The position numbers and the translations under genes are program-made. The notes under the pieces are model-generated. The model was given only the letters and a program-made list of their open reading frames with translations. It had not been told where the DNA came from and did no database searches. Below are positions 985 to 45,031 of a stretch of 64,000 nucleotides of DNA, piece by piece. This DNA is from an uncultured delta proteobacterium (lineage in GTDB: Bacteria > Desulfobacterota > RBG-13-43-22): the NCBI GenBank assembly GCA_963843145.1, contig CAWJJC010000019.1, forward strand, positions 38,652 to 102,651. The letters run 5' to 3'. Position 1 is the first letter of the stretch. Each line of letters opens with the position of its first letter.

Positions 985-1139
985 GAAAAATAATTTTTTT
1001 AGCATAAGTCCTAAAAAATTACAAGAAAAAATATTTTGGGAGAAATAGGGGGGAGGGGCGAAGAGAGAGGGAAGAAAGAAGATGGAAGATGGAAGAAAAA
1101 AGAAGGGAGAGGGGCGAAGTTAGAAAAAAAGGCTTTGAA

Positions 1140-1403
1140 TTAGGGGAGTTTATTCTTCTGAATTCCCTCTATACAGGCGAAGATCCTTTCCAGGCGGCTC
1201 TGAGGTAACCCGCCAAAGGTTTCCTGGAGGACTTCCGGGGGAAAGTTTTCCTTCAAAAAAGTCCCCACCTCCATCCGGGTTTCCCAGCAATTTATGAAAT
1301 TGCGACAGGGGAGGTCAGACTGGACCCGGCGGCAGTAATTGAAAGTCATCATGGTTCCCATTTGGGGGCAATAGATTTCCAGAAGATCGTGTTTGTCAAG
1401 CAT
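1140..1403 (-). CDS. Small Cys-containing hypothetical protein
   Basis: 87 aa ORF, SD GAGG upstream, C-x11-C-x7-C-x5-CW pattern. Confidence 0.65.
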   Translation of the reverse strand: MLDKHDLLEIYCPQMGTMMTFNYCRRVQSDLPCRNFINCWETRMEVGTFLKENFPPEVLQETFGGLPQSRLERIFACIEGIQKNKLP

Positions 1404-1436
1404 ACGTACCTCGCCAAAAGCTCCTCAGAGCGTGCT

Positions 1437-1473
1437 TGTCATTCCGAGCGCACGCGAAGGGCTCAGGATGACA
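1437..1473. repeat. GTCAT-type palindromic (REP/RPE-like) element, short copy
   Basis: TGTCATTCCGAGC...GCTCAGGATGACA inverted ends; related copies at ~7750, ~20012, ~23991. Confidence 0.55.
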
Positions 1474-1519
1474 GTTTGGAGTTTGTTGCGAAACCGCCAA
1501 GAATAACGCCGAGTCATCT

Positions 1520-1551
1520 GGGATAGCCGGTCAAAAGCGACCGGCTATCCC
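1520..1551. terminator. Stem-loop just downstream of trpB2
   Basis: GGGATAGCCGGTC-6nt-GACCGGCTATCCC, perfect 13-bp stem; weak U tract. Confidence 0.5.
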
Positions 1552-1563
1552 TTAATTTAACAG

Positions 1564-2934
1564 TTATCTAGGTGGGCATTTGGGGAAATTCTCCAGAGCC
1601 AACAAGGACTGTTGAATCTCATCATCGGGCATTTCATAATCGGAAAGTTTTCCTTCAAAATAGGCATTATAGGCCATCAGGTCCACCAGACCGTGACCGC
1701 TCCAGTTGACCAGAATGGTCTTGGCTTTGCCTTCTTCCTTGCACTTCTTGGCCTCCTGAATAACCGCGGCCAGGGCGTGGTTGGTTTCCGGGGCCGGGAT
1801 AAAGCCTTCGGTCCGGGCCCAGGTGACCCCGGCGGCAAAGGTCTCCATTTGGAGTACCGCCCGCGGTTCGATCATCTTATCGAGGATTAACTGGGATACA
1901 ATGGGGGCCATGCCGTGGTAACGAAGCCCGCCGGCATGGATGGGGGCCGGTACAAAGGCATGTCCCAAACTGTGCATGGGCAGCAGAGGGGTCATCTGAA
2001 CGGTATCGCCGAAATCATAGACAAAGGGCCCCTTGGTCATGGTCGGGCAGGAGGCCGGTTCCACGGCAATCACCTGGACCTGTTTGCCGTTGATTTTATC
2101 CAGAATGAAGGGCAGGGCCAGTCCGGCGAAATTACTTCCCCCGCCGCAGCAGGCGATGACGATGTCGGGATATTCCCCGATTTTTTTCATCTGCTTCTGG
2201 GCCTCTAGACCGATGATGGTCTGGTGCAGCATCACATGGTTTAAGACGCTGCCCAGGGAATACTTGGTGTCCGGGGTGGTCACAGCGTCTTCCACGGCTT
2301 CGCTGATGGCGATGCCCAGGCTGCCCGGGGTATCGGGATTCTGCTCCAGGATCTTCCGTCCGGCATTGGTGTCCGGGCTGGGGCTGGGCACACAGGTGGC
2401 CCCCCAGGTGTTCATCATCAGGCGACGGTAGGGTTTCTGGTCGAAGCTGATCCGCACCATATAGACCTTGACTTCCAGACCATAGAGTGCCCCGGCAAAG
2501 CTCATGGCGCTGCCCCACTGTCCGGCGCCGGTTTCAGTGGAGATCCGCTTGGTGCCGAAGACCTTGTTGTAATACGCCTGGGGAATAGCTGTATTGGGCT
2601 TGTGGCTGCCCGGGGGGCTGACCCCCTCATTCTTGAAATAGATCTTGGCCGGGGTCTGGAGAAATTGTTCCAGACCGTAGGCCCGCCCCAGGGGGCTGGG
2701 CCGGTAGATGGCGTATTTTTCCAGGACCGCTTCCGGGATGTCGATCCAGCGCTGGGGGCTGACCTCCTGTTCGATCAGGTTCATGGGGAAGATGGGAGCC
2801 AGATCATCCGGGCCCACCGGCTGTCCGGTGCCGGGATGCAGGGGAGGGAGCATCCCATTGGGCATGTCGGGTAGGATGTTGTACCACTGCCTGGGCATTT
2901 CGTCTTCGGTCAAAAGCACTTTTTTTTGCAACAT
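1564..2934 (-). CDS. trpB2: TrpB-like PLP-dependent enzyme (tryptophan synthase beta type 2)
   Basis: [11 protein letters not shown] lysine motif, [28 protein letters not shown]. Confidence 0.93.
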
Positions 2935-3282
2935 GGTTCCTCCTTGAAGTAGTTAATAATATTAATAAACCACTGGGACGGCGTTTATTCTGCCGATTCA
3001 CCTCCTTTCAATATATTGAACCAAGCTAAAAAGCATGCCCTAAAAATAAAAAGCGCCTCAGTTTCCTCCTAACCCGAGACCTATGAATCCAATCCTAATG
3101 GTACGCTCTAATACGCCTAAACAACTATATACAAGGTTCTGAAGGCCTGTCAATTTTTTTTGATTTGGGATATTTTCTCGGCCATTGCTTTTTCTGAATA
3201 TAGAGGCTATAAAAAACATATTAAACCCCCAGGCCCGGGACGGGCACTCGCGAAGGATAAAAATATGCCAGGTTTTCGTTTT

Positions 3283-3411
3283 TCGTAGGGCAGGCGACCT
3301 CGCCTGCCGGCTGGGCGAGGAATACGGGTCACTCGACATCCAAGGTAAGGCTAAGGCGACGGTGGTCAAATTCAGCTCCGGTTTGGGCGGCGGGGTCGCC
3401 GCCCCTACGAA
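3283..3411. repeat. GTAG-type REP doublet
   Basis: CGTAGGGCAGGCGACCTCGCCTGCC ... GGGCGGCGGGGTCGCCGCCCCTACG; inverted copy of the right half at 11177-11233. Confidence 0.65.
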
Positions 3412-4757: not shown

Positions 4758-4804
4758 AATTCTCCGGCGGAGTAGATTCTCGGGTCCCTTGTCAAAAACA
4801 AAAT

Positions 4805-4862
4805 TGTCAATAATCAACGGTTAATTATTAATTAAGAATTAAACATTGATTATTGATTATTG
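4805..4862. repeat. AT-rich heptamer (ATTGATT) inverted array
   Basis: CAATAATCAA ... ATTGATTATTGATTATTG; related arrays at 11236-11268 and 13065-13100. Confidence 0.5.
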
Positions 4863-5006
4863 CCTTAGCAAGAGGACATCAGGACTATTTTTGTAAAAAC
4901 GGTTTTAACCTGTCCCTCTTTATCTTTTCCGGGTTTATGGTTTACAACGGCCACGGTTTATGGCATAAAATTGGATTATTTTAAAATCGACAGGAGCTGA
5001 AAGCTT

Positions 5007-6359: not shown

Positions 6360-7098
6360 GATAGCCGGCGGTTCAGGGGAGGATGAAACCTTAGACGTCT
6401 GGGCCCCGGCGGATCTTCGGCTGATCCAGAAGAAACGCGGCTATCGTTTCGCTCTCGATTCCCTGCTTCTTTCCGATTTTACCCGTTTGAAATCCAAGGA
6501 TCGCGTTCTGGAGTTAGGGATCGGCTGCGGGATTGTCTCTTTAGGGCTTTTCCGAAAATATCCGGAAATTTACCTGGTAGGTCTGGAACTCCAGGCCGGG
6601 TTCGTTGAGCTGGCTCGCCGTAACCTGGGTTTGAATCAAGCGGAGGATCGTATTTCCCTGGTCCGGGGGGATATTCGTTCCCTGCCTTATCTCTTTCGGC
6701 CGGGCTCCTTTGACGCCGTGGTGACCAATCCCCCCTACCGACCGCTCCGCACCGGTCGAATCAATCCCCACTCTGAGAAGGCCCTGGCTCGGCACGAGAT
6801 AGCAATCAATTTGGAGCACCTCCTGACCGCCAGTCGACAGGTTTTGAAAAAAGGAGGGAGATTTTTTCTGATTTACCCGGTCCGAAGGATGCCCGCTCTT
6901 TTAGCCCTGGCCCGGCAAAATCACCTGGAACCCAAGCGTCTGCGCCTGGTGCACCCCCTGGCCGACCGGGAAGCCGATTGGGTGCTGCTGGAAGCGGTTA
7001 AGGAAGGGGGCGAAGAACTCAAGGTTCTGCCTGTTTTGGTGGTTTACGAGAAGCTTGGGATTTACTCGCCCGAGGTTCGGGATCTGCTGGGGCGCTGA
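6340..7098 (+). CDS. tRNA1(Val) (adenine37-N6)-methyltransferase family SAM methyltransferase
   Basis: GYRFALDSLLL, LELGIGCG, NPPY, ARHE. Confidence 0.85.
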   Translation: MKPSWSEIAGGSGEDETLDVWAPADLRLIQKKRGYRFALDSLLLSDFTRLKSKDRVLELGIGCGIVSLGLFRKYPEIYLVGLELQAGFVELARRNLGLNQAEDRISLVRGDIRSLPYLFRPGSFDAVVTNPPYRPLRTGRINPHSEKALARHEIAINLEHLLTASRQVLKKGGRFFLIYPVRRMPALLALARQNHLEPKRLRLVHPLADREADWVLLEAVKEGGEELKVLPVLVVYEKLGIYSPEVRDLLGR

Positions 7099-7564
7099 AG
7101 CGAAGGCTTTTTTCCATCAAGGATTGGACCCTATCCCGTAGTTCAGGGTTTTTAATATCCTGGGACATTCGGTGGATGGATTTTTTCTCTTTTCGGGAGA
7201 GGGTCCGAGGGGTTCCAGGCAGGTTTTTTTTCGTCTCGTTCCAGCCCTGTTCCTGTGGCGGGAGGTCCCCGGTTTTGAGGCGTACCTCATTAATAAGGGT
7301 TTGATTCAGGCGTCGATTGATTTCCTGCCGGAGGGGTTCTTTTAAAAACTGGAATTGCTGGGCGGCGGCCGGGTTGGAAACCACGACCTGAAGAGTCCCT
7401 TCCTTGAGTCCTTCCAGACAAGTGTAGGGCCGCAAGGCCTCGGGGATCATTTCCGACCAGAGTTCGATCACCTGCGGGATGACCGGATCAATCGGCAGCC
7501 CCCCGCCGTTGATGAGCCCCTGGAGAATCGTTCCCAGGGACTGTATTTTATTATCCTTTTTCAT
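7019..7564 (-). CDS. DUF721/DciA-family protein
   Basis: IQSLGTIL...W...GTLQVVVSNPAAAQQFQFLKEPLRQEINRRL pattern; C-terminus overlaps the convergent gene. Confidence 0.65.
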   Translation of the reverse strand: MKKDNKIQSLGTILQGLINGGGLPIDPVIPQVIELWSEMIPEALRPYTCLEGLKEGTLQVVVSNPAAAQQFQFLKEPLRQEINRRLNQTLINEVRLKTGDLPPQEQGWNETKKNLPGTPRTLSRKEKKSIHRMSQDIKNPELRDRVQSLMEKSLRFSAPADPEPRASKSQASRKPPKQAEP

Positions 7565-8740: not shown

Positions 8741-8838
8741 TGAACATCGAACATTCAACATCGAACGCCCAACCTCGAATGAAAAACAAACTCTCTCATT
8801 ACGACATTCGATGTTGGAAGTTCGATGTTCGATGTTCA
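8741..8838. repeat. Heptamer (CATCGAA/TTCGATG) inverted-array hairpin
   Basis: Left arm TGAACATCGAACATTCAACATCGAACGCCCAACCTCGAATG, right arm CATTCGATGTTGGAAGTTCGATGTTCGATGTTCA. Confidence 0.85.
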
Positions 8839-9004
8839 CCTTTTCACCGCCCCTTCCGCAGTCCATTGGACTAGATGGGATGTCCGGAAGGTCAAGTCTA
8901 TATTCTAATTAAATATTGCACTTTGCATTACTCTTACTCTCTTTCTTCTTCTTTTCTCTTCTTCCCTCTTCTATCTTCTATCTCCCCCCCGCCCCGCACC
9001 CACC

Positions 9005-18965: not shown

Positions 18966-18985
18966 GGCCCGGAGCGCCGGTGAGG

Positions 18986-19066
18986 GGTTAGGGTGCAGGG
19001 GATAGGGGGCAGTGTTGAAGATTAAATCTTTTCCCCAACACCCTATACCCCATACCCTAAACCCTG
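18986..19066. repeat. Heptamer (TAGGGT/ACCCTA-type) inverted-array hairpin
   Basis: GGTTAGGGTGCAGGGGATAGGGGG ... CCCCAACACCCTATACCCCATACCCTAAACCCTG. Confidence 0.7.
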
Positions 19067-19074
19067 AATTTTAA

Positions 19075-27641: not shown

Positions 27642-28256
27642 ATGAAATGTTGGAAAAGGAAATTCATCGGGTTCTTACTCCTATCGCTGTTGACTTTGCC
27701 GGTTTATGCCCAGGGACCCCAACCCGGACCCCCGGCGCCGCCCGGCCAGGGGCAGCCGTTGGTAGACAGCGACAGCTATGTGATTGGACCGGAAGATGTG
27801 CTGGATATTTTTGTCTGGAAGGAAACCGAACTCTCCCGCAAGGTCCCGGTCCGGATGGACGGTAAGATTACCCTTCCCCTGGTCGGGGAAATGAAAGCCG
27901 CCGGCCTGACCCCGCTAAAGTTAAAGGCGGAATTGATCGATAAGCTAAAAGCGTACGTGGATGTACCGAATGTCACGGTGACCGTGATGGAGGTCAACAG
28001 CTTTAAGGTGTACATTTCCGGCCAGGTGGCCAAGCCCGGGGTGTACCCGCTGAGATCCGAGACCACCATTTTACAATTTATTTCTTTGGCCGGCGGGTTT
28101 ACCGAGTGGGCCAACCAGCGCAAGATCCTCCTGATCCGCAAGGAACAGGGGAAAGAAAAGCGTTTTACCATCAATTATAAAAATATCGTTTCCGGCGACG
28201 ATCTCAGTCAGAATTTAGTCCTTAAGCCGGGGGACACGATCATTGTGCCGGATTAG
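27642..28256 (+). CDS. Polysaccharide export protein (Wza/GumB-like, Poly_export + SLBB)
   Basis: YVIGPEDVLDIFVW, VRMDGKITLPLVG, GQVAKPG, LKPGDTIIVP. Confidence 0.92.
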   Translation: MKCWKRKFIGFLLLSLLTLPVYAQGPQPGPPAPPGQGQPLVDSDSYVIGPEDVLDIFVWKETELSRKVPVRMDGKITLPLVGEMKAAGLTPLKLKAELIDKLKAYVDVPNVTVTVMEVNSFKVYISGQVAKPGVYPLRSETTILQFISLAGGFTEWANQRKILLIRKEQGKEKRFTINYKNIVSGDDLSQNLVLKPGDTIIVPD

Positions 28257-28326
28257 GCGTACTGCGCAGAGCGCAGATGGAAGAGGGAAGAAGAAACAAT
28301 GCAAAATCCAAAAAAGGGGGGAGAGC

Positions 28327-29742
28327 ATGATCGATCAAAATAAAAGTGTAGCCCCATATTTCTTTCGCCTAGTACTTAGCGCTCTACGCTTGGCGCTTCG
28401 CGCCCCGCGCTTCCATCTTCCATCTTCCATCTTCCATCTCCTCCCCCCCCCCCGCGCTCTGCGCTCTGCGCTCTGCGCTATAACCCTCGGGCTATTTCTG
28501 GGAACGGGCTTCTTGCCGGCCTACGGAGATATGAAGGACCAGCTTTCAAACCTCCACCCCTATATCACCCTCCAAGGACAATATGACGACAACCTTTATC
28601 TAACCCAGGATAATAAAACCAGCGACTTCATTACTACTATTTCCCCGGGATTGAAGTACAAGACCGAGGGGCCGGCCTATAAATTCGACCTGGGGTTCGA
28701 TCTGGGGATGAATTTTTACGCCTCCAATTCCGAGCTCAATTATATAAGCTATAACGGGCGCCTGGACACATCTTACTCCTTCACCCCGCGCTGGACCGTC
28801 AAATTGTATGATACCATTACCCGTTCCCGGGACAACCTGCAGAATTATTCGGTTCCTTCCCCCGGCGGACCGCAGACCTTTACGACCTCCAGCAGCGGGC
28901 AGGGGCTTTACCTTCGCAATACTTTCCAGCCGGCGCTCGAATATAAATTCGGGCGGGAAAATGTGGCTGCTTTGAGTTACAGGAACATGATCTACCGGAC
29001 GGAGGGCAGCAGCAGTTCCGGGGACAGCACGGAAAACGCCGTCACACCCCGCCTTGACCTATTGGTTCAACATCCGCAATGGGATTGCTTTGGACTATAC
29101 CTACACCAAGGCCGAATTCGAGGATCAGCCCGATTGGGTTGGCAGCAGTCCTGGGGGGCCGCTATCTCTACCGGTTCAACTCCCCGGACCACCGCGTTTG
29201 GGGACTATCGCTATACCCTTCGGGACTTCGATCCCCCCGGCCGAGACTATTCGGTCCACTCCCCCAGCCTGGGTGTGGATCACGCCTTCAGCCCCCGGCT
29301 GAACGGCCATGCCCAGTTCGGCTGGTTTTGGGAACTGGTCGATGCCGGTCCTTCCTTCAATGGGCCGGTCATTAACCTTTCGATCACTCACCGCGTCACA
29401 GAAAGGACGAGTTACACCCTGACTTTTGATAGCGGATACCGGGAGAACTACTTTACCACCGACAACCTGGGGTTTTCCAAGTATTACCAGGTCACCGCTT
29501 CGGTCACCCACCAGCTCCGGGAGCGTCTGAGCATCGGCCTGACCGGCAGCCTGAGCCGTGACGAATACACACAGCCGGACTATATCAGTTATCTCTATAA
29601 CGTTACCGCCAACCTGGCCTACCAGCCCTTGAAATGGCTGAAAACCTCCCTGGAAGCCGGCAACTACGGCCGAGAGTCGGAACTGAACGGCGATAGTTAT
29701 AGGGATAATAGGGTGATGCTGAAACTGACGGCGGAATACTAA
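28327..29742 (+). CDS. EPS-associated outer-membrane beta-barrel protein (compensating frameshifts ~29055-29160)
   Basis: YDDNLYL..SDFITTISPG, alternating beta strands, C-terminal Y; located after wza. Confidence 0.8.
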   Translation: MIDQNKSVAPYFFRLVLSALRLALRAPRFHLPSSIFHLLPPPRALRSALCAITLGLFLGTGFLPAYGDMKDQLSNLHPYITLQGQYDDNLYLTQDNKTSDFITTISPGLKYKTEGPAYKFDLGFDLGMNFYASNSELNYISYNGRLDTSYSFTPRWTVKLYDTITRSRDNLQNYSVPSPGGPQTFTTSSSGQGLYLRNTFQPALEYKFGRENVAALSYRNMIYRTEGSSSSGDSTENAVTPRLDLLVQHPQWDCFGLYLHQGRIRGSARLGWQQSWGAAISTGSTPRTTAFGDYRYTLRDFDPPGRDYSVHSPSLGVDHAFSPRLNGHAQFGWFWELVDAGPSFNGPVINLSITHRVTERTSYTLTFDSGYRENYFTTDNLGFSKYYQVTASVTHQLRERLSIGLTGSLSRDEYTQPDYISYLYNVTANLAYQPLKWLKTSLEAGNYGRESELNGDSYRDNRVMLKLTAEY

Positions 29743-29745: not shown

Positions 29746-29876
29746 CCGTTTATATCGTTCATTTCGTTTGTTTGGTTTGTATCGTTCCAGAAACCAAAAG
29801 AACGAGGAGAACCAAAGGATCCGAATAAACCCAACAACGAAACGAACGTAATCCACCAAATAAACCAAACAAACGA
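29746..29876. repeat. 9-mer inverted-array hairpin filling the intergenic spacer
   Basis: T-rich CGTTTATATCGTTCATTTCGTTTGTTTGGTTTG arm, then A-rich (AAACCAAAY/AAACGAAAY)n arm. Confidence 0.85.
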
Positions 29877-29896
29877 AAAAGACGGAGTCTTTTGAA

Positions 29897-31378: not shown

Positions 31379-31386
31379 CGCGGCTC

Positions 31387-31513
31387 GTTAATATCGTTCA
31401 TTTCGTTTGTTTGGTTTGTTTCGTTTTGAAAACCATAAAAACCAAGGTAACCAAATAACCATACAAGCCAGATAACCAAATCAACGAAATCAACGAAATA
31501 ACTAAACAAACGA
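31387..31513. repeat. 9-mer inverted-array hairpin filling the intergenic spacer
   Basis: CGTTAATATCGTTCATTTCGTTTGTTTGGTTTGTTTCGTT ... AAACAAACGAAA directly before ATG. Confidence 0.85.
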
Positions 31514-32463: not shown

Positions 32464-32600
32464 CGTTTATTTCGTTGATGTGGTTTTTTCCTTTTTAAGA
32501 CCAAATAAACCAAAGGAACCAAACAAACCATATCAACGATATAAACGAAATAAACCAAACAAACGAGACAACCAAATGAACGAAATAAACCAAATAAACG
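32464..32600. repeat. 9-mer inverted-array hairpin filling the intergenic spacer
   Basis: CGTTTATTTCGTTGATGTGGTT ... about 11 A-rich units ending AACCAAATAAACG. Confidence 0.85.
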
Positions 32601-32609
32601 GTACTTCTC

Positions 32610-33520: not shown

Positions 33521-33866
33521 CGTTTATTTGGTTGATATGGTTTATTTGGTTTATTTCGTTAACCAAAAACACCAAATAAACGAAAAAACGGGGTTGTATG
33601 GATTATTTCGTTAACCAAATAAACGAAACAAACCAAACAGACGAAATAAACCCCCTTGGTCGGAGCCGAAACGGACCCGAGATGGCGGTAGCCCGTCAAA
33701 ATGCGGAGATGGAAGAAGGAAGATAGAAGAGGGAAGCAATAAAAAGAAGAGAGAGGGGAGAAAAGAGAAGAGAGTAAAAGAGTGAAAACGTCTTTCTCCC
33801 TCGCAATAAACGCGAAGAACGCGATAAACTATATAAACGAAAAAAACGATATAAACCAAACAAACG
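33521..33866. repeat. Nested 9-mer hairpins plus purine heptamer tract
   Basis: GCGTTTATTTGGTT at the start pairs with AACCAAACAAACGC at the end; internal 9-mer hairpins and a GATGGAA/GAGGGAA tract. Confidence 0.8.
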
Positions 33867-33875: not shown

Positions 33876-35051
33876 ATGCCTGAGGTTAGAAAAATGAAAT
33901 CCATGTCCGCTGCTTTGGAGGGTCTAGACCGTCTGCCCGAGGCGGTCCAATCCGCCTTGGACCTTTCCGCCCAGGGAGTTAGGGAGGGCGCCGCCCCGAT
34001 ATACATGGAAGGGATTCTTTCCAAGGGGGAGTTCCTGGAACAGATGCGGTTTGAAAAACGGCGGGTCGATCGTTCGCAGGCTCCCCTGTCCATGGCCCTC
34101 TTCGTACTGGGAGAGGAATTGCTGCGAGACGCTAAAAAGCTCCGTGGATTCCTGGTCAATCTGAAACAGGGCACCCGGGAGACGGATATCAAAGGCTGGA
34201 TCAGCTCTCGAGTCCTGGGCCTGCTTCTTCCGGATACCGATGGACCGGGCGCGGAACGCTGCGTGGAGTTATTGAAAAACGGCAGCCGCCAACAGGCCTG
34301 CACCGTGGTGACCGGGACTTACCCGGATCAGTTGTTTCAGGAGGTTTTGGAAAAGACCGAAGATCAGTCGAAAATTTTTACCTTGGACCTCGAAGGGGAC
34401 GGGGCCCGAAGCGTCCAGTTGGCCCTGAAACGCCTGCTGGACCTGCTGGGCTCCATCATCGGTCTGGTGCTCTTTTCGCCTTTGATGTTGATCATCGCCC
34501 TGGCCGTCAAGTTCACTTCCCCCGGTCCGATTATTTTCCGGCAGACCCGGTTGGGCAAGCGGGGAAACCCTTTCTCCTTTTATAAGTTTCGTTCCATGGT
34601 AGCCGGCAATGACGACCGGGTCCACCGGGAGTACGTCTGCAAACTGATCAATGGGGAAAACGATCAGATCAATCAAGGCGAGAAAGACCGGCCGCTCTAT
34701 AAACTGAAAAACGACTGTCGAATCACCAAGGTGGGCCGGATCATTCGCAAACTAAGCCTAGACGAGCTTCCCCAGCTTTTCAATGTCCTCAAAGGAGATA
34801 TGAGTCTGGTCGGCCCCCGCCCCCCCATCCCCTACGAGGTGGAAAAATACAAGTCCTGGCACCTGCGGCGGATCTTGGAAGTCAAGCCCGGAATCACCGG
34901 CCTCTGGCAGGTGGAAGGCCGCAGCAAAACCTCTTTCGATGAAATGGTCCGACTGGATATTCGCTATGTTCAAAATTGTTCCCTCTGGCTGGACATAAAA
35001 ATCCTGCTCCGTACGGTCCGGGAAGTGATTATGCCGAAGGGAGGACTTTGA
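33876..35051 (+). CDS. Priming glycosyl-phosphate transferase (bacterial sugar transferase) with N-terminal GGDEF-like domain
   Basis: [44 protein letters not shown]. Confidence 0.92.
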
Positions 35052-35096
35052 TAAGTCAGGAGTGAGGGGTAAAAAGTGAGGAGTGAGGAGGGGGAG

Positions 35097-35354
35097 ATGG
35101 ACAAACCGCATAAGAAGATGAAGGTCTGGCAGGAGGCTATGAGGGCAGTTCGGGAAATGTACCGACTGACCAATTTGCTGCCCAGCGAGGAGAAATTCGG
35201 TTTAATTTCGCAAATGCGTAGGGCGGCAGTCAGCATCCCCTGTAATATCGCTGAAGGGGCGGCCCGAAGAGGGAAGAAAGAGTTCAAAAATTTCCTAAGC
35301 ATCGCTCAAGGTTCGTTGAGCGAGTTAGATACCCTACTAAAGGAGTCTTTATAA
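35097..35354 (+). pseudogene. Four-helix-bundle (23S rRNA IVS/Avd-like) protein, C-terminally truncated
   Basis: VWQEAM..LP.EEKFGLISQMRRAAVSIPCNIAEG..R..KEF..FL.IA.GSLSELDT, then stops; last helix missing. Confidence 0.8.
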
Positions 35355-36457: not shown

Positions 36458-36539
36458 TAAAAAGAGGGGAGATAGAAGATGGAAGAGGGAAGGAAGTAAA
36501 AGAAGGGAATAGTGCAGATTCGAAATGTCTTTACTCTTT

Positions 36540-36703
36540 TCGCCTAACGCTCCGTGTTTCGCCACTGGCGCCGCAGGCCGGAGGGTTTCCTAAAATCGGC
36601 ATCTCCCGATTTTAGGAAAATATAGTTCTCTGTGCTCTCTGTGTCTCCGTGGTGAATATTCTTTTGTCTATCTTTGCATGCTTAGCGCCTTTGCGGTGAA
36701 TAA
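36540..36703 (+). repeat. Twin-hairpin/9-mer element subfamily 2 (right part)
   Basis: ~160-bp direct repeat of 42219-42378, including AAAATCGGCATCTCCCGATTT and CTCTGTGCTCTC..GTGGTGAA. Confidence 0.75.
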
Positions 36704-36780
36704 TTTTTGTAACCCTGTCTAACGAACCCAACCAAATAAACGAAACCAACCAAACTAACCAATTTAAACGAAACAAACCA

Positions 36781-37308
36781 ATGAACGAGAAAACCTGCAT
36801 CATCACCCCCGACGTCAAACTGGGGGAAAACGTTCAGATCTATAATTTTGTCAACCTCTACGGCTGCGAGATCGGCGACCAGACCCGGATCGGGGCCTTT
36901 GTGGAGATTCAGAAAAACGCCCGCGTCGGGAAGCACTGCAAGATCTCCAGCCATACCTTTATCTGCGAAGGCGTTTTCATCGAGGATGAGGTCTTTGTCG
37001 GCCACGGGGTCATGTTCATCAACGACAGCTTTCCCAGGGCCACGGCCGGCGGACGCCTCCAGACCGAGGCCGACTGGGCCGTGGAACCCATCGTGGTGAA
37101 AAAGGGCGCCTCCATCGGCTCCAACGCCACCATCCTGGCTAACGTGACTATCGGGGAACGGGCCATCATCGGCGCCGGCAGCGTGGTCACCCGAGACGTC
37201 CCCGCCGATACCATCGTCGCCGGTAATCCTGCGAGGGTTTTGAGAAAAATAAAAGAGGATAACGGTTTGAGGATCGAGGAGCGAGGACCGAGGTGCGAGG
37301 TCCAATGA
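36781..37308 (+). CDS. Hexapeptide-repeat N-acetyltransferase (WbpD-like)
   Basis: KISSHTFICEGV.IED.VFVGHGVMFIND, GASIGSNATIL, GAGSVVT, GNPAR. Confidence 0.9.
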   Translation: MNEKTCIITPDVKLGENVQIYNFVNLYGCEIGDQTRIGAFVEIQKNARVGKHCKISSHTFICEGVFIEDEVFVGHGVMFINDSFPRATAGGRLQTEADWAVEPIVVKKGASIGSNATILANVTIGERAIIGAGSVVTRDVPADTIVAGNPARVLRKIKEDNGLRIEERGPRCEVQ

Positions 37309-37335
37309 TAAGATATCAGGGAGAAAGGAAAACAA

Positions 37336-37704
37336 ATGGATTTTGAAGACTTGGAGGTTTGGAAAAGATCGACACGATTAAGCGCGACAATCTACAAAAA
37401 TCTAGCCATGCTGAAAGATTATAGTTTTCGTGATCAAATAACTCGATCGGGACTATCTGTGCCTAGTAATATCGCGGAAGGTTTTGAACGGGAATCACAA
37501 AAAGAATGTTTGGTTTTCCTGTCTTATGCCAAAGGTTCCTCCGGGGAATTAAGAACTCAGATCTACATTGGAATGGAAATCGGGTATATTGATGATGAAA
37601 TCGGAAAAGGATGGATAAAAGAGGTTAAAGAACTTTCTTCAATGCTAGGCGGGCTCATTAAAACGAAAAGAAATTTTATTCAAAACCAAGTAAAGAAGAA
37701 GTAA
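37336..37704 (+). CDS. Four-helix-bundle (23S rRNA IVS/Avd-like) protein
   Basis: FEDLEVWK, DQITRSGLSVPSNIAEGFER, FLSYAKGSSGELRTQ. Confidence 0.92.
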   Translation: MDFEDLEVWKRSTRLSATIYKNLAMLKDYSFRDQITRSGLSVPSNIAEGFERESQKECLVFLSYAKGSSGELRTQIYIGMEIGYIDDEIGKGWIKEVKELSSMLGGLIKTKRNFIQNQVKKK

Positions 37705-37771
37705 AAGCTTTTTTTCCTTGATCCTTAATCCTAGAACCTCGATCCTCGTTTCTGATAAAGGAGTTATTTAT

Positions 37772-39061
37772 ATGCAAGTTCCTTTTCTGGATCTGAAAGC
37801 CCAATACGAAGCCATTAAACCCGAAATCCATTCCGCCCTGCAAGCGGTGATCGACAAAACCGCTTTTGCCGGGGGGCCGTTTGTGGAGAAGTTCGAAAAG
37901 GACTTCGCCCTTTTCTGCGGCTGCCCGGAAGCCATCGGGGTGGGCAGCGGCACGGAGGCCCTCTGGATGGCCCTGCTGGCCCTGGGCGTCGGGCCGGGAG
38001 ACGAGGTCATCACCGTGCCCAACACCTTCATCGCCACCGCCGAGGCCATCTCCTTCTGCGGCGCCACCCCGGTTTTTGTGGATGTGGACGAGCACACCGC
38101 CACGATGGACCCGGGGAAGCTTGAAGAACTTCTTAAGCGCAGAGCGCTGAGCGCGAAGCGCGGAGCGGAGATGGAAGAGGGAAGAGGGAAGATGGAAGCA
38201 AAGACCCCTATCCCCTATCCCCTGCCCCCTAGACCCTCCCAAGAAGAGGGAAGAGGGAAGAGGGAAGAGGGAAGCGGCCAACCTTTTTCTCGCTCCTCGC
38301 TCCTCGCTCCTCACTCCTCACCCCCTAACGGTAGTCTAAAAGCCATAATTCCTGTCCACCTCTACGGCCAAACCGCCGATATGGACCCCATTCTGGACTT
38401 GGCGGAGAAATACGGCCTGGTTGTTGTGGAAGACGCCTGCCAGGCCCATGGGGCGGAGTATAAGGGAAAGCGGGCCGGGTCGCTCGGGGCGGCCGGGGCC
38501 TTCAGCTTTTACCCAGGTAAAAACCTGGGGGCCTACGGAGAGGCCGGGGCCATTGTCACCCGGGATAAAACCCTGGCCGATCGGCTGCGGGTCTTTCGGG
38601 ACCACGGCCAGGCCCGCCGTTACTATCATGATGTGGTCGGTTGGAACGGGCGCATGGACGGCTTCCAGGGGGCGGTCCTGGGAGCGAAGTTGAAGTACTT
38701 GGAAGAATGGAATAATGGAAGATTGGAAAATGCCAAACGATACCGGAAGCACCTGGCGGGGGTCGAGGGGGTCGTGTTGCCGGGGCAAGCGGACTATGCG
38801 CGGCACGTGTACCATTTGTTCCCGGTGCGGGTCAAGAACCGGGACGCCGTGCTCCAGGCATTAACCGAGCAGGGAATAGGCTGCGGCATCCACTATCCGG
38901 TACCGATCCACCTCCAGAAGGCCTATGAATTTCTGGGTCATCAAACGGGGGATTTCCCGGTCTCCGAAAAGATCGCTTCCGAACTGATCTCCCTGCCCAT
39001 GTTCCCCGAGCTGACCGAGGAACAGGTGGCCTACGTCGCCGAAGCCCTGAAGGATGCGTGA
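37772..39061 (+). CDS. DegT/DnrJ/EryC1/StrS aminotransferase with in-frame repeat-derived insertion
   Basis: SD AAGGAG; VPFLDL, NTFIATAEAI, PVHLYGQ, EDACQAHG, SFYPGKNLGAYGEAG. Confidence 0.93.
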   Translation: MQVPFLDLKAQYEAIKPEIHSALQAVIDKTAFAGGPFVEKFEKDFALFCGCPEAIGVGSGTEALWMALLALGVGPGDEVITVPNTFIATAEAISFCGATPVFVDVDEHTATMDPGKLEELLKRRALSAKRGAEMEEGRGKMEAKTPIPYPLPPRPSQEEGRGKREEGSGQPFSRSSLLAPHSSPPNGSLKAIIPVHLYGQTADMDPILDLAEKYGLVVVEDACQAHGAEYKGKRAGSLGAAGAFSFYPGKNLGAYGEAGAIVTRDKTLADRLRVFRDHGQARRYYHDVVGWNGRMDGFQGAVLGAKLKYLEEWNNGRLENAKRYRKHLAGVEGVVLPGQADYARHVYHLFPVRVKNRDAVLQALTEQGIGCGIHYPVPIHLQKAYEFLGHQTGDFPVSEKIASELISLPMFPELTEEQVAYVAEALKDA

Positions 39062-39171
39062 AGACGCGGGGCGCATAGCGCTGAGCGCAGAGGGAAGATG
39101 GAAGAAATAAAAAGAAGAGAGAGGGAGAGAAGAGAGAAAAAGAAGGAAAAAACAGGGGAAAAAGGAATCTT

Positions 39172-39335: not shown

Positions 39336-39379
39336 ATCTTCTGCATATTCTTCGCTTTAATTTTAGTAAGCTTCACTAG

Positions 39380-40445
<1,066 letters not shown>

Positions 40446-40451: not shown

Positions 40452-40659
40452 TCTCTCACAGAGCGCACAGAGATCACAGAGAAAAAATAATTTTTGATTG
40501 CCGCTGAGGGGCCGGCAATCAAAAAAAATCTCCCGCTCCGCGAACGAAACCCCGCCGGAGGCGTGAGTTGTTTTGAAAAATCGGCCTCTCATCGATTTTT
40601 CAAAAAAAGAATCGTCTTTCTCTGCGCCCTCCGGGAACTCGAGCGAAGCGGGCGAGAGA
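40452..40659 (+). mobile_element. ~210-bp twin-hairpin element with 9-bp-periodic arms, upstream of the GxxExxY gene
   Basis: CTCACAGAGCGCACAGAGATCACAGAGAAA ... two hairpins ... TTTCTCTGCGCCCTC..GAACTCGAGCGAAGCGGGCGAGAGA. Confidence 0.75.
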
Positions 40660-40669
40660 TAATAAACTC

Positions 40670-41074
40670 ATGGATCTAAACCAACTTTCCTCTGACATCA
40701 TCAAGGCGGCTATAAATGTTCACAAGGAACTCGGGCCAGGATTACTGGAAAGCGTCTATCAGGTTATGCATGGCCAAGGAATTATCGATCGATGGGGAAA
40801 AAACTCGCAGACAGAGGTGCCGTTTCCCCATTTATTACAAAGAGGAAATAGTCCAGCAATGAAGGCTTTCGTCTGGATCTCTTAATCGAAGAGACCATGA
40901 TCGTTGAATTGAAATCAGTTGGTCAAATCCAGGAGATTCATAAAAAACAATTATCTAACCTATCTCCGCCTGGCCAAGAAACCACTGGGATTACTTATAA
41001 ATTTTAATGAAGTCCTTATCAGAGACGGCATAACCCGGATTGTTAATTCACCTCTGGAGGATGGCCGGCAATAA
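40670..41074 (+). CDS. GxxExxY protein (PD-(D/E)XK nuclease-like), frameshifted
   Basis: IIKAAINVHKELGPGLLESVYQ; in other frames FRLDLLIEETMIVELKSV, TYLRL, GLLINF, ITRIVN. Confidence 0.88.
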
Positions 41075-41216
41075 AGAACCAATCCGGCGCAACCTCGCAC
41101 CCCCGCCGGAGGCGTGAGGCGGTTTTAAAGAATGCCGTCCCTCTCAACGGCAGTTTTTAAAAAATAATTCGTCTTTCTCTGCGCCCTCTGTGAACTCGAG
41201 CGAAGCGGGCGAGAGA
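41055..41216 (+). mobile_element. Second copy (right ~160 bp) of the twin-hairpin element, overlapping the GxxExxY 3' end
   Basis: GGCCGGCAATAAA, CCCCGCCGGAGGCGTGAG, hairpin with CTCTC loop, TCGTCTTTCTCTGCGCCCTC..GAACTCGAGCGAAGCGGGCGAGAGA. Confidence 0.75.
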
Positions 41217-41326: not shown

Positions 41327-41551
41327 ATGCCGGATATCGTTAATGTACATGAAGCCAAGACACATTTATCCAGTCTTCTGGAAAAAGTCAAGGGAGGACA
41401 GGTTATCATCCTGGCGAAGGCCGGGCGTCCGATTGCCCGTTTGGTGCTCTATGACGAAGTAAATCCGCGAGCAGGGGGATTTGTCGAGGGCACTTTTGAC
41501 GAATCCTTTTTTGATCCTTTGCCGGAGGAGGAACTCTCCGCCTGGGGGTAA
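41327..41551 (+). CDS. Phd/YefM family antitoxin
   Basis: VNVHEAKTHLSSLLEKV..G..IILAKAGRPIARL. Confidence 0.92.
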   Translation: MPDIVNVHEAKTHLSSLLEKVKGGQVIILAKAGRPIARLVLYDEVNPRAGGFVEGTFDESFFDPLPEEELSAWG

Positions 41552-41559
41552 TAGAATGA

Positions 41560-41958
41560 ATGAAGGCGAGATTCTTGCTTGATACCCATGTTCTTTTATG
41601 GTGGTTTTTTGGAGACCGGCGCCTTTCGGAAAAAGCCTCGGAAACCATTAAAGATCCGGACCACGCGATTCTTGTCAGCTGCGCTTCAGCTTGGGAAATT
41701 TCCACTAAATTCCGGTTGAGGAAACTTCCCCAGGCCGGAACGGTTGTGAGGAATTTCTCCGCTCTGATTAGGCAGGCTAGTCTGGAAGAACTGCCTATTT
41801 CCATCGATCAAGCGTTGGAGGCGGGTGGGCTTCCTCGGGACCCCACCGAGATCCCTTTGATCGGATGCTGATCACGCACAGGCCCGTCTGGAAGGTATTC
41901 CCCTCGATTGGTCTGACCCGGTTTTTGGACAATTGACCCAGTTTCCATCGTCTGGTAA
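41560..41958 (+). CDS. VapC/PIN domain toxin (frameshifts near 3' end)
   Basis: LLDTHVLLW, SAWEI, HRDPFDRML in a shifted frame. Confidence 0.88.
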
Positions 41959-42378: not shown

Positions 42379-42392
42379 TTTGTCTTCCTCAG

Positions 42393-42556: not shown

Positions 42557-42742
42557 ATGCATCCCGAGCAGACAAAAATCTATAAACGATTGTCCCCGAC
42601 GGAGAAACTTCGAATAGCCGGAGAGCTGTACGCGACCAGTCGGAAGTTGAAAACGGCCGCTGTGCGAAGGCAGCATCCAGACTGGTCCGCGCTGGAAGTG
42701 GAAAAAAAAGTCCGGGAGATATTCTTGTATGCCCGAACCTGA
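42557..42742 (+). CDS. Small helical protein, probable partner of the downstream nucleotidyltransferase
   Basis: 61 aa, RLSPTEKL...RRQHPDWS; overlaps the next gene. Confidence 0.7.
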   Translation: MHPEQTKIYKRLSPTEKLRIAGELYATSRKLKTAAVRRQHPDWSALEVEKKVREIFLYART

Positions 42743-43299: not shown

Positions 43300-43428
43300 C
43301 TCAAGCGAAGCGGGCGAGAAAATGAAGGTTTTCTGTCTTTTTCAACTCCTCACGCCCTCGCGCCTTACGCCTCACGGTCTATAATTTTGATTTAATTGTC
43401 ACATGTCAAGACCTGGCACCAGAAGCTG
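43298..43428 (+). repeat. ~120-bp cassette-boundary direct repeat, copy B
   Basis: Near-identical to copy A; begins at the stop codon of the preceding gene. Confidence 0.85.
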
Positions 43429-43474
43429 TTCCGAGCGAAGTGGGCGAGAGATAAAGGGTCTATCTTTCACTACA

Positions 43475-43896
43475 ATGATTAAATTCAAAAAAATTCCTCC
43501 AAACATTGAGGAGCTTCTTCCCGGGGCGGCCCGTTATCTGAAAAATCAACCGGAAGTCCGATTTGTCTATCTTTTTGGGGGATTGGCGGTTGGTCGACGG
43601 GGCCCTTAAGTGATATTGATCTGGCTGTTTATTTAGCTGACGAGAGGAAGACACCCTGGATCAAAATAGAATTATTGAATCATTTAATCGATCTGCTGCG
43701 GACCGAGGAAATTGATCTGGTCATTTTAAACACGGCCCCTTTGCCTTTGGCCTATCGAATCCTAAAGAATAAAAGAATTCTGGTTGACCGGGCCCCCTTC
43801 CTTCGCCATCGCTATGAATCGCTGATCATCAGGGAATATCTGGATTTTTCCGTGGCGGAAAGCCGGATTTTCGAGAGAAGGTACCTCCATGGTTGA
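43475..43896 (+). CDS. Minimal nucleotidyltransferase antitoxin (MntA-like), frameshifted
   Basis: VYLFGG...SDIDLAV...EIDLVILNTAPL. Confidence 0.8.
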
Positions 43897-44323
43897 CCGG
43901 GGTCTGGTGCTGCGAAAATTGGCGGAACTGGAGGGATATCAAAACCAGCTCCTGGAATTCAAAGGAATGACGGTCAAGCAATACCGTGATGATTGGAAGA
44001 CCCAGCGGATTGTCGAGCGTACCCTGCAGATGATGATCGAAACCTGCCTGGATATGGCCAATCACCTTGTTTCGGATCAGGGCTACCGGATGCCGGTAAG
44101 TTATGCGGACATCTTCAAAGTCCTCGGTGAAAATAAAGTTTTGGAAAAAAAACTGGTCGTTCGCCTGGAAAAGATGGCCAAGTTCCGGAATGTCCTGGTG
44201 CACCAATATGAAAAGATCGATCCCGAAATCATCCTCGGCCTCCTAAAAAAGAATTTGGGGGATTTCGGCCAATTTAGAAAAGCTGTGGTAGGGTTTGTTC
44301 AAAACCGTCAGAACCTCGAGTGA
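43889..44323 (+). CDS. HEPN/DUF86 RNase toxin (HepT-like)
   Basis: VERTLQ..IE..LD.ANH, FRNVLVHQY. Confidence 0.9.
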   Translation: MVDRGLVLRKLAELEGYQNQLLEFKGMTVKQYRDDWKTQRIVERTLQMMIETCLDMANHLVSDQGYRMPVSYADIFKVLGENKVLEKKLVVRLEKMAKFRNVLVHQYEKIDPEIILGLLKKNLGDFGQFRKAVVGFVQNRQNLE

Positions 44324-44389
44324 CCGAAGAAGGCGGACGAGGGACAAAAGGCCTATCTCTAAATAATTCGTCTTTCTCTGAGATCTCCG

Positions 44390-44512
44390 CGAACTCGAGC
44401 GAAGCGGGCAAGAGAAAAAGGCCTTCCGTTTTACACCGCCTCGCGCCCTCGTGCCTCACGGTCTATAATTTTGTTATGATTGTCACTTGTCAAGACCTGA
44501 CACTAGAAGCTG
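44390..44512 (+). repeat. ~120-bp cassette-boundary direct repeat, copy C
   Basis: CGAACTCGAGCGAAGCGGGC...GCCTCACGGTCTATAATTTTG..ATTGTCACTTGTCAAGACCTGACACTAGAAGCTG. Confidence 0.85.
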
Positions 44513-44577
44513 AAGGACAAGATGGAAGATGGAAGCAACTGCGATGACCCCTTCTTCGAAGGGGCGGAGATCAGGTG

Positions 44578-44961
44578 GTGACGGAACGTATTAAAACAGT
44601 CAGGGATCTGGTCGTTTACAAGAAAGCATTTGTTGCGGCAATGTCCATTTTCGAAATATCGAAGACTTTTCCCAATGAGGAAAAATATTCGTTGACCGAT
44701 CAGATCCGTCGATCCTCGAGATCAGTGTGCACAAATATCGCCGAGGCGTGGTGAAAAAGGAAATACAAGGCCGTCTTCGTCAACAAGCTTTCGGACTCCG
44801 GTCAAGAGGCTGCGGAAACTCAAACCTGGCTGGAATTCGCCCTTGCCTGTCGATATATCAATGCCCAGATTTACGAAGATTTGTTCGCAGAATACGAACA
44901 AATCTTCGCCATGCTCCATGCTATGGGGGAGAAAGCTTCAGCTTTCTGCAATAAAGGTTAA
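44578..44961 (+). CDS. Four-helix-bundle (23S rRNA IVS/Avd-like) protein with in-frame TGA at 44752 (read error or pseudogene)
   Basis: Own translation: RDLVVYKKAF..FPNEEKYSLTDQIRRSSRSVCTNIAEAW*KRKY..F..KLSDS..EAAETQTWLEFA. Confidence 0.85.
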
Positions 44962-45031
44962 TGGTAGTTGCTTCCATCTTCTCTCCCAACCCAGTGCAGC
45001 TTAACCTAATTTATTGTCTAGTGAGGTGAAC

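Follow-up and report, generated by a model that had tools for sequence, protein, structure and literature searches.

The stretch of DNA analysed here, called the window, comprises 64,000 nucleotides (nt) of an uncultured delta proteobacterium (assembly GCA_963843145.1, contig CAWJJC010000019.1; G000:C19:38652-102651 in our own numbering), whose genome, G000, is available as 5.35 Mb in 32 contigs with a contamination estimate of 6.9%. Positions 1-45000 constitute an XrtA/PEP-CTERM exopolysaccharide (EPS) locus, the spacers of which are populated by degenerate tandem arrays with a period of seven or nine nt and, at some places, by a small gene lying between two such arrays in inverted orientation. 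These small genes belong to two families, namely the four-helix-bundle genes of PF05635/TIGR02436, hereafter 4HB, and the PD-(D/E)XK-like GxxExxY genes of TIGR04256/PF13366, and a gene of this kind together with its flanking arrays, or arms, will be called a cassette. As described below, gene and arms appear to travel as one heritable element, of which gene-less forms are scattered over the genome.

The three 4HB cassettes of the window have as neighbours genes for a glycosyl-phosphotransferase, a dehydrogenase, an acetyltransferase and an aminotransferase, as well as toxin-antitoxin genes (Table 1). An initial annotation of this DNA had described heptamer arms enclosing 4HB genes and CACAGAG 9-nt arms surrounding a GxxExxY gene, and both arrangements are found: the 4HB genes at 37336-37704 and 44575-44961 lie within CGAGGAN and GATGGAA arms, respectively, and the GxxExxY gene at 40670-41074 lies between CACAGAG and CTCTGYG arms. 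The first of these is the only intact cargo gene in the window.

Table 1. Periodic arrays, hairpins and cassettes of the window, in order of position (MFE, minimum free energy; z, MFE z-score of the predicted fold).
Feature	Position	Strand	Remarks
Solo purine-rich heptamer array, GAAGAKG class	1065..1106	+	beside tRNA-Lys (909-984)
Gene-less hairpin, AATTGAT/AATAATC class	4802..4865	.	partner score 17; z -3.4
Gene-less hairpin, CGAACAT class	8749..8840	.	partner score 22; z -6.7
Gene-less hairpin, GGGTGCAG / ACCCTAY	18983..19069	.	z -2.3
Composite gene-less hairpin	28258..28486	.	outer AGCGCAG/CTGCGCT, inner GATGGAA/TTCCATC; z -3.7, nested stem in MFE structure
9-nt hairpin, operon spacer	29747..29886	+	GTTTRTTTS after stop codon, AAACSAAAY before next start; z -3.8
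9-nt hairpin, GTTTRTTTS/AAACSAAAY class, next spacer	31385..31507	+	z -4.2
Long AAACCAAAY 9-nt array	32498..32603	+	immediately 5' of tyrosine autokinase gene (32610)
9-nt hairpin (33521-33651), GATGGAA array (33707-33736), more 9-nt arrays	33521..33865	+	up to start codon at 33876; z -4.5
GTGAGGA heptamer array, left arm of decayed cassette	35055..35095	+	right arm absent
Truncated 4HB gene	35098..35354	+	PF05635 positions 1-77 of 106; stop overlaps ATG of next gene
GAAGAKG heptamer array	36463..36492	+	in 323-nt dehydrogenase-acetyltransferase spacer
Dispersed element of about 90 nt	36568..36656	+	small stem-loop and CTCTGTG 9-nt arm
AAACCAAAY 9-nt array	36730..36769	+	ends at acetyltransferase start codon
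Left arm of intact 4HB cassette, CGAGGAN heptamers	37263..37305	+	
Intact 4HB gene, 122 residues	37336..37704	+	PF05635 E 4.6e-31; TIGR02436 103 bits; PDB 2gsc XCC0516 E 4e-12
Right arm of intact 4HB cassette, NTCCTCG heptamers	37715..37748	+	29 end-to-end base pairs in fold 37255-37760
In-frame insert of 192 nt in DegT-type aminotransferase gene	38144..38335	+	arrays AGCGCNG, GAAGAGG, CCCCTAT, GAAGAGG, CTCGCTC
AGCGCAG and GAAGATG composite array	39071..39106	+	just past aminotransferase stop codon
AAACSAAAY 9-nt array	39379..39414	+	at epimerase gene start
Left arm of GxxExxY cassette, CACAGAGNN 9-nt units	40457..40482	+	
GxxExxY gene (TIGR04256 / PF13366) with frameshifts and stops	40670..41074	+	CACAGAG and CTCTGYG arms
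Right-arm module of GxxExxY cassette, TCTCTGCGCCCTCTGTGAA...	41168..41216	+	near-identical copy upstream, 40610-40660
Left arm of third 4HB cassette, AGATGGA x2 and AGCAACT	44519..44545	+	
4HB gene with in-frame TGA at 44752	44575..44961	+	GATGGAA arms
Right arm of third 4HB cassette, AGTTGCTTCCATCTTC	44963..44985	+	35 end-to-end base pairs in fold 44500-45010

Periodic arrays in the window and in the genome

Arrays were sought with a self-match scan requiring at least 16 of 21 self-matches at a given lag, which also had to be the best period, after removal of low-complexity tracts; Tandem Repeats Finder was run on the window alongside it, and array counts were set against a Markov (dinucleotide-like) shuffle of the genome. 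In the window, Tandem Repeats Finder reports many period-7 and period-9 arrays at the places named by the initial annotation, which had located them in the intergenic gaps of the first 45 kb and had seen none beyond. The self-match scan bears this out, as 38 of its 39 arrays lie in 1-45000, and the only one in 45001-64000 is a period-9 stretch inside coding sequence.

Genome-wide, period 7 yields 397 arrays as against 9 in the shuffle, and period 9 yields 93 as against 3; among the other periods, period 6 gives 68 arrays and periods 5, 8, 10 and 11 give 11-24. With a stricter scan the period-7 figures are 159 in the genome and 0 in the shuffle. The period-7 arrays lie mostly (299 of 397) outside the crude long open reading frames (ORFs) that served as background and that cover 84% of the genome. 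They fall into unit families of 14-45 arrays each, including AATAATT (45 arrays), AACATCG (43), AAATTCG (25), AAGAGGG (23) and AAATCCG (19), among others. G000 therefore displays the features by which bacterial heptamer repeats are recognised, that is, tandem 7-nt units, mainly intergenic, of recurring types. Within genes, 25 arrays are placed at least 90 nt deep in 14 crude ORFs of at least 200 residues; the aminotransferase alone was verified as carrying an in-gene insert, and most of the other ORFs look spurious or over-extended.

Inverted arms and gene-less hairpins

Each array was examined for a reverse-complement match with a score of at least 16 within 1.5 kb, with reverse-only and complement-only matches as nulls. 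Such a partner is found for 166 of the 397 period-7 arrays, compared with 16 in the reverse-only and 12 in the complement-only null, in agreement with the pairing of a left arm with a reverse-complement right arm that had been noticed at the outset. The nulls are of little use for period 9, whose unit reads nearly alike when reversed, and the excess is clear only at a score of at least 24 (11 of 93 versus 0). Furthermore, copies in the 3' arm follow, in mirror order, the variant units of the 5' arm.

The two arms of a pair are usually close to each other, with a gap below 150 nt in 60 of 100 left-arm pairs, and gaps of 360-600 nt contain 4HB genes. Genes found in gaps of 700-1400 nt were considered as further cargo and rejected: they are ordinary genes between neighbouring spacers, each of which has its own hairpin, and include those for an ABC ATPase, a polysaccharide export protein, a nitroreductase, PAP2, a flavodoxin-like protein, an iron repressor, a creatininase, glycosyltransferases, SSB and GcvH. 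Two small ORFs within hairpin loops have no Pfam match. After merging of overlaps, 64 non-overlapping gene-less hairpins with an arm gap below 250 nt remain, 46 of which lie in co-directional, 13 in convergent and 5 in divergent spacers, the corresponding background proportions being 61%, 18% and 20%. Predicted folds of gene-less hairpins have MFE z-scores from -2.3 to -6.7, relative to a shuffle that is conservative. The CGAACAT-class hairpin of the window shares its unit with two 4HB cassettes, at C28:509035 and C3:115297.

The arms are biased in composition. In 75 4HB loci from many genomes the 5' arms are purine-rich and C-poor (35% A, 28% G, 23% T, 14% C), the 3' arms being the mirror image, and the mismatches between arms mostly contain A (A-C 140, A-A 111, G-A 81, G-T 77). 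With one partner of the G-C pair scarce in it, an arm would be kept from folding on itself.

Arms around cargo genes in other bacteria

In G000, 16 genes match TIGR02436, 12 of them strongly, and there are two GxxExxY loci. Nearly every 4HB gene is flanked by inverted arrays, with a different unit at each; specifically, arrays stand on both sides of 7 of the 12 strong 4HB genes, compared with 28 of 4836 other crude ORFs, among which 431 have an array on at least one side. The GxxExxY copy of the window reaches 52.1 bits only by summing its frameshifted pieces, and an intact copy at C27:220214 scores 147 bits, over the family cut-off. The idea that each array class is tied to one cargo family holds in part: units of 7, 8 or 9 nt go with 4HB genes and units of 8-9 nt with GxxExxY genes, but the 9-nt class AAACCAAAY has as its cognate, at another place in the genome, a 4HB gene (C28:783068), not a GxxExxY gene.

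Two further 4HB loci of G000 may be mentioned. Two 4HB genes on contig C4 (G000:C4:3052-3960 and 6466-7100), 3 kb apart and 93% identical, are accompanied by very long GATGACR / AAGACCA arrays, about 200 nt of which are crossed by one crude ORF, giving a 7-residue peptide repeat; an orthologue in the related genome G003 is 92-94% identical and has the same units. At G000:C20:128257-129342, an ORF resembling the N-terminus of HsdM (type I restriction-modification) has a 4HB gene with GGATTGT arrays directly upstream, an arrangement that relatives L017 and L028 resemble.

The survey of other bacteria covered about 140 loci for arms and 17 genomes for array density. At 4HB loci of 20 related genomes, complementary arms (score at least 16) occur in 21 of 28 cases, compared with 1 of 28 in the reverse null, with units of 7 nt, at some loci 8 or 9 nt, that differ by locus. 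The same holds at far greater distance. From GTDB species of many phyla 80 4HB loci were fetched, 77 of them usable, covering Pseudomonadota, Planctomycetota, Verrucomicrobiota, Bacteroidota, Bacillota, Nitrospirota, Brocadia and others; complementary arms flank 46 of the 77 (reverse null 3 of 77; shifted controls 2 of 290). Where a flank of this set reaches 16 or more of 21 self-matches, its best period is mostly 7 (31 upstream flanks, 39 downstream), otherwise 8 (4 and 4), 9 (4 and 4) or, in 2 upstream flanks, 4. GxxExxY loci, drawn from 120 genomes of the phylum of G000, have complementary arms in 19 of 28 cases (reverse null 0 of 28; shifted controls 4 of 107), and these arms consist of two or three 9- or 8-nt units, such as CACAGAGNN, CGCAAAGNN and CACGGAWNN. 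The enrichment of complementary arms around both families that the initial annotation would predict is thus observed against its controls.

The association extends to plasmids. Relatives of 4HB genes are present in 24 plasmid records, mostly cyanobacterial, and four of six plasmid 4HB genes (from Nostoc, Anabaena, Calothrix and Riemerella) have inverted heptamer arms with scores of at least 23, the nulls reaching at most 13. The arms are present at the 4HB gene of a Nostoc punctiforme plasmid, and on a plasmid of Anabaena sp. 90 the arm-flanked 4HB gene stands between cas6 and cas4. On a plasmid of Nostoc PCC 7120 the downstream array alone remains, and a transposase gene lies upstream.

In the light of these figures it is highly improbable that neutral replication slippage or error-prone assembly produced the arrays and that their link to the small genes is coincidental. 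Such an origin could appeal to the noisy contig of the window, where rpoB and rpoC lie in many ORFs and several genes of the first 45 kb are frameshifted, and to the variation of repeat copy number among strains in the IVS (intervening sequence) that Coxiella has in its 23S ribosomal RNA (rRNA), as described in the available part of PMC4990558. It gives no reason, however, why period 7 with its 397 arrays should prevail over periods 5, 8, 10 and 11, nor why the arms are mirrored; the reverse nulls and shifted controls are low, and the same anatomy is seen at more than 100 loci in independent assemblies. The arrays are not artefacts of noisy assembly, since they occur in many kinds of assembly, including complete genomes and plasmids of cultured strains.

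Gene and arms as one heritable unit

If gene and arms form one element, related proteins should be bracketed by related units. Over 2185 pairs, the mean unit distance is 1.1 at a protein identity of at least 70% (n=7), 2.7 at 55-70% (n=101) and 3.1-3.3 in the remaining 2077 pairs, below 55%. When 113 4HB proteins are placed on a quick maximum-likelihood tree, the period-9 label is clustered, with 3 changes, a value reached by 0 of 500 shuffles; the period-8 label is without clustering (8 changes, reached by 500 of 500 shuffles). Phyla are intermixed on this tree, the intact gene of the window grouping with Thiobacillus, Caldithrix and gammaproteobacterial sequences, and some pairs of 4HB genes from different phyla share one arm unit. 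Comparison of sequences thus shows that gene and arms are inherited jointly and pass from phylum to phylum as a pair.

Gene-less arrays are related to the resident cassettes. Specifically, 78 of the 367 period-7 arrays of G000 that do not adjoin a 4HB gene have exactly the unit of a resident 4HB cassette, compared with an average of 5.6 and at most 26 when arm units are drawn in sets of equal size from other genomes, and 182 of the 367 are within one mismatch of a resident unit, compared with 79.6 +/- 28.6. Gene-carrying and empty forms of one class of element had been proposed at the outset, and the shared units support this. Moreover, array density follows the dose of the gene: it amounts to 5-24 period-7 arrays per 100 kb in the 7 genomes with at least four 4HB genes and to 0-4 in the 10 genomes with at most two, and correlates with 4HB copy number (Spearman 0.68, Mann-Whitney p 3e-4) over 17 genomes of the phylum, which are related to one another and four of which were sampled on contigs picked for family hits.

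Gain and loss at the aminotransferase locus

At the DNA level, the comparison with three same-genus genomes matched repeat elements and did not match genes, and four same-genus regions tried as orthologues of window genes turned out to hold only paralogues, with 31-39% identity; orthologues of window genes were obtained by protein search. The dispersed element at 36568..36656 is 80-86% identical at several places in the three same-genus genomes (L031-L035), where the protein genes have no DNA-level match, and purine-rich GAAGAGG arrays match at dozens of places in them.

The initial annotation had proposed a comparison of filled and empty orthologous sites, and one such site is provided by G007, a genome of the same family and another genus, whose aminotransferase is 76% identical to that of the window. 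The order dehydrogenase-acetyltransferase-aminotransferase is kept in G007 within 3.7 kb that contain neither arrays nor an insert, and its acetyltransferase-aminotransferase spacer has 115 nt and no 4HB gene; the matching 4.1 kb of the window hold 12 arrays. Likewise, the dehydrogenase and acetyltransferase ORFs, separated by a spacer of 323 nt in the window, overlap in G007.

Inside the aminotransferase gene of the window, the insert is a clean addition of 64 residues, made up of five heptamer arrays and falling between residues that are adjacent in PDB 7b0d (151, 152); G007 has a short loop only at this site. In G006, whose aminotransferase is 75% identical, another insert of about 38 residues, with other heptamers, occupies the same codon, and the gene has its own repeat array directly before the ATG. 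The presence of different heptamers at one site in relatives indicates that turnover of the arrays is fast and that the period is retained. A conserved part of the window's aminotransferase gene contains, at 38698-38732, a period-8 repeat (TGGAAGAA-like) that may be due to chance or to coding.

Comparison with known systems

The closest precedent is found in rRNA. According to the passages available from PMC4990558, terminal inverted repeats of the Coxiella 23S IVS form a 28-bp stem, which is cut by RNase III and whose loop carries an S23p ORF; three or four tandem GACAGAT heptamers, varying in number by strain, precede the ORF, and an older hypothesis that the IVS was a mobile element is cited. 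A PF05635 ORF in the loop, terminal inverted repeats forming a stem and heptamers by the ORF are thus shared, as far as that source goes, with the cassettes described here. PF05635 genes are also recorded in rRNA insertions of the candidate phyla radiation at several sites (PMC11270868) and, in the available part of PMC3936711, inside cas loci.

The present cassettes differ from the rRNA IVS in several respects. They lie between protein genes, in operon spacers, and not in rRNA, and for this reason the system is IVS-like but not a member of the rRNA IVS; moreover, a blastn search with the 23S gene of G000 (on C22) revealed no 23S-like DNA in the about 140 fetched 4HB and GxxExxY loci. Their arms are long degenerate arrays whose unit varies by lineage, there are large gene-less families, and a second cargo family, GxxExxY, has arms of 8-9 nt units. 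Excision by RNase III, a feature of the rRNA IVS, would apply to them by analogy, and an RNase III gene is present in G000. Among sequencing runs, none of RNA was listed for the locus, and the DNA runs listed share at most 0.11 of its words. The 23S gene of G000 has 3023 nt as compared with 2925 in the model, and a heptamer hairpin (AAAGCTS arm and its complement) lies at G000:C22:352695-352781, about 70 nt upstream of it.

A second line of comparison is offered by the heptamer direct repeats of bacteria, to which the cyanobacterial tandem heptamer repeats, presumably those with the classical name STRR, belong. Such repeats, TAACTGA among them, in Beggiatoaceae, Cyanobacteria and Bacteroidetes, have been proposed to be regulatory sites, and CspB binds with a stoichiometry of one protein per heptamer, as stated in the accessible portion of PMC4679880; a later preprint, in the part available, likewise proposes regulatory roles and regards the partner as still unidentified (bioRxiv 10.1101/2022.06.06.494920). 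Tandem 7-nt units that are mostly intergenic, frequently placed shortly before a start codon, of several types in a genome and sporadic in phylogenetic spread are common to the repeats in these excerpts (PMC4679880, bioRxiv 10.1101/2022.06.06.494920) and to the present arrays, which differ in forming inverted paired arms tied to 4HB genes, on plasmids of Nostoc and Anabaena too. The terms 'intervening sequence' and 'S23' have 0 occurrences in PMC4679880, and its available passages mention neither inverted partner arrays nor PF05635. In the full texts searched, no statement of a general link between 4HB genes and heptamers was found beyond the single-species note on the Coxiella IVS.

Gene-less hairpins recall miniature inverted-repeat transposable elements (MITEs) and the repetitive extragenic palindromic sequences and bacterial interspersed mosaic elements (REP/BIME), in being short, non-coding and multi-copy, in residing in spacers, and in having ends in common with a gene-bearing cognate. 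Their ends, however, are tandem arrays of fixed period and not a unique inverted repeat, and, unlike REP/BIME, their 4HB cognate codes for a helical protein of 120 residues and not, as far as the cassettes themselves show, for a RAYT. Rickettsia palindromic elements are in-frame insertions in protein genes, and the aminotransferase insert is similar to them as a repeat insert at a loop of a conserved enzyme that keeps the frame open; it differs in being a mosaic of five heptamer arrays, with other heptamers in an orthologue. Finally, Avd of the BPP-1 diversity-generating retroelement (DGR) is related to PF05635, with a homologous four-helix-bundle fold, according to the available section of PMC10053308, but neither a reverse transcriptase nor template and variable repeats stand beside the window cassettes, no genome-wide search for reverse transcriptases having been made.

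Proposed selfish stem-loop cassettes and alternative readings

We consider it the best explanation, with a probability of roughly 0.6, that these elements are selfish stem-loop cassettes of the IVS type residing outside rRNA and accompanied by MITE-like gene-less derivatives. A full cassette consists of a small gene, usually 4HB and in a second class GxxExxY, bracketed in operon spacers by two arms, each a degenerate tandem array whose unit measures 7 nt in the majority of 4HB lineages, 8 or 9 nt in some others and 8-9 nt in the GxxExxY class. Gene-less hairpins and solo arrays, which fill the spacers and in one case lie in frame within a gene, stand to the full cassettes much as MITEs stand to transposons, here without a transposase. 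Judging from the rRNA IVS, the arms would pair in the host transcript into a long duplex, cleavage of which by RNase III would release the loop; pairing in RNA followed by RNase III release is the most likely way of working, because the anatomy matches that of the rRNA IVS. Slippage would be tolerated, because the arms are tandem repeats, and the encoded protein may recognise its own repeats, because the period follows the protein lineage.

Mobility, as claimed by the initial annotation, is likely, with indirect support from dispersed families, from one site of presence and absence, and from units shared across phyla; neither a transposition intermediate nor a mobility enzyme was seen, and no target-site duplication is evident in the flanks read, the filled and empty orthologous spacers being too diverged to align. 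These negatives count against selfish cassettes, and the following observations do so as well. At a score of 16, 231 of the 397 period-7 arrays of G000 have no partner, and arms are missing at 31 of the 77 GTDB 4HB loci and at 9 of the 28 GxxExxY loci. The fold of the whole cassette at 37255-37760 has a z of only -1.4 and that of the DegT insert a z of -0.5. Two genomes with two 4HB genes each (G115 and G119) have 0 arrays in 100 kb, and one without a 4HB hit (G044) has one true array. The cognate cassettes encode only PF05635 or PF13366 proteins and, in this differing from MITE systems, no transposase. Lastly, part of the decay of the cargo genes may be assembly error, because other genes on the contig are also broken.

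The arrays outnumber the 4HB genes about 30:1, and a host function is therefore conceivable. In such a reading, which we judge to be very doubtful, the arrays would be spacer elements of the host, acting as leaders in translation, as attenuators, in processing, or in the binding of a host factor, a cold-shock protein for example, and 4HB and GxxExxY genes would merely insert or persist there. Their placement would suit this role: a start codon follows within 40 nt of the end of 56 period-7 and 17 period-9 arrays, of which latter 11 are more than 70% A+C on the mRNA strand, and every spacer of the EPS operon at 29.7-33.9 kb holds an array. The regulatory proposals for heptamer repeats mentioned above, with their unidentified partner and one CspB per heptamer, point in the same direction, as far as the accessible parts of PMC4679880 and bioRxiv 10.1101/2022.06.06.494920 go. 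Yet a preference of small genes for certain targets does not predict that related 4HB proteins have the same unit across phyla, and neither the mirroring of variant units in the 3' arm nor an array density that follows 4HB copy number is predicted by host elements; in addition, the syntenic operon of G007 works without any array, and one set of arrays lies within coding sequence.

The mismatches between arms bear on whether the stem acts in RNA. Were a stem in the sense RNA under selection, G-U would be expected above A-C, and the opposite is counted in the 4HB arms: on the sense strand of 75 4HB loci there are 121 G-U as against 204 A-C mismatches (binomial p 5e-6; 15 loci versus 39), and the GxxExxY arms have 28 G-U and 27 A-C. 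A simple sense-RNA stem accounts for this pattern less well than a DNA-level or antisense role, or than the preponderance of purines and of A in the 5' arm, and the base composition of the 5' arm may be the source of the mismatch bias. The suggestion of the initial annotation that the element would hide in operons through looping out of the mRNA receives no support from these counts.

At the DNA level, the arms might serve as subterminal inverted arrays of protein-binding sites, as in some transposons, or as hairpins in single-stranded DNA, as in IS200/IS605 and REP-RAYT; the 4HB or GxxExxY protein would, by binding, synapse the ends or mark them, cutting would fall to a host enzyme or to the PD-(D/E)XK-like protein, and the RNA hairpin would be a by-product. 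The excess of A-C over G-U, with the unbiased arms of GxxExxY, is in favour of this possibility, which we nonetheless regard as unlikely, though a serious competitor. A period that tracks the protein lineage, units co-inherited with the gene and found again in gene-less families, and an in-frame insert in a coding gene, with other heptamers at the same codon in G006, likewise speak for it. Whilst GxxExxY matches a nuclease superfamily (PF13366), PF05635 is without a known catalytic domain, and the absence of a visible target-site duplication is no help to a DNA-level element. Furthermore, 4HB genes are co-oriented with both neighbours in 76 of 105 loci, so that cassettes sit mostly in sense orientation in co-directional strings, and hairpins are rarer in divergent spacers (5 of 64) than the background (20%); both facts fit elements that depend on transcription by the host. 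Only one relative, the rRNA IVS, has been characterised, and it is processed as RNA, according to the part of its description that was available.

Other features of the window

Toxin-antitoxin genes at 41327-41871 and 43889-44323, for a Phd-like antitoxin, a PIN-domain protein and a HepT-family protein, stand between the GxxExxY cassette and the third 4HB cassette. The epimerase gene (39395-40445) and the TIGR03016-type outer-membrane gene (28243-29742) are apparently frameshifted and divided among several ORFs, which suggests assembly indel errors or real decay. From 45 to 56 kb, pieces of rpoC, rpoB and nusG are split into many short ORFs and the GC skew is strongly negative. An abrupt rise in GC content, from about 0.53 to 0.69-0.76, begins at about 56 kb, with tRNA-Trp (55607-55680) at the boundary and with TerD-domain and pyridine-nucleotide-disulphide-oxidoreductase ORFs beyond it; the contig is heterogeneous, and a noisy join, a chimeric one or an island might account for this.

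Implications

The PF05635 proteins, which are widespread and named for the rRNA IVS, the GxxExxY proteins and the heptamer repeats of bacteria have so far had no agreed function or origin. The present findings tie these three puzzles together, in that genes and repeats make up one heritable unit across many phyla, the carriers of which include cultured strains of Nostoc, Anabaena and Pseudoalteromonas. A broader proposal, to be taken as tentative, is that PF05635 proteins are the missing partner of the heptamer repeats, each lineage reading its own 7-nt unit, or a 9-nt unit in one clade, and maintaining or spreading the arrays, and that together with their arms they constitute pan-bacterial selfish cassettes without a transposase. 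The 23S IVS, the cyanobacterial heptamers and the 4HB genes in cas, restriction-modification and polysaccharide operons might then all be manifestations of one system, with GxxExxY as a second, independent class using a ruler of 8-9 nt. In practical terms, 4HB genes found in cas loci, as noted in the available part of PMC3936711, or in polysaccharide operons are likely to be hitch-hikers and not components of the respective pathways, and arrays in spacers, as well as in-frame inserts in protein genes, become recognisable as debris of such elements.

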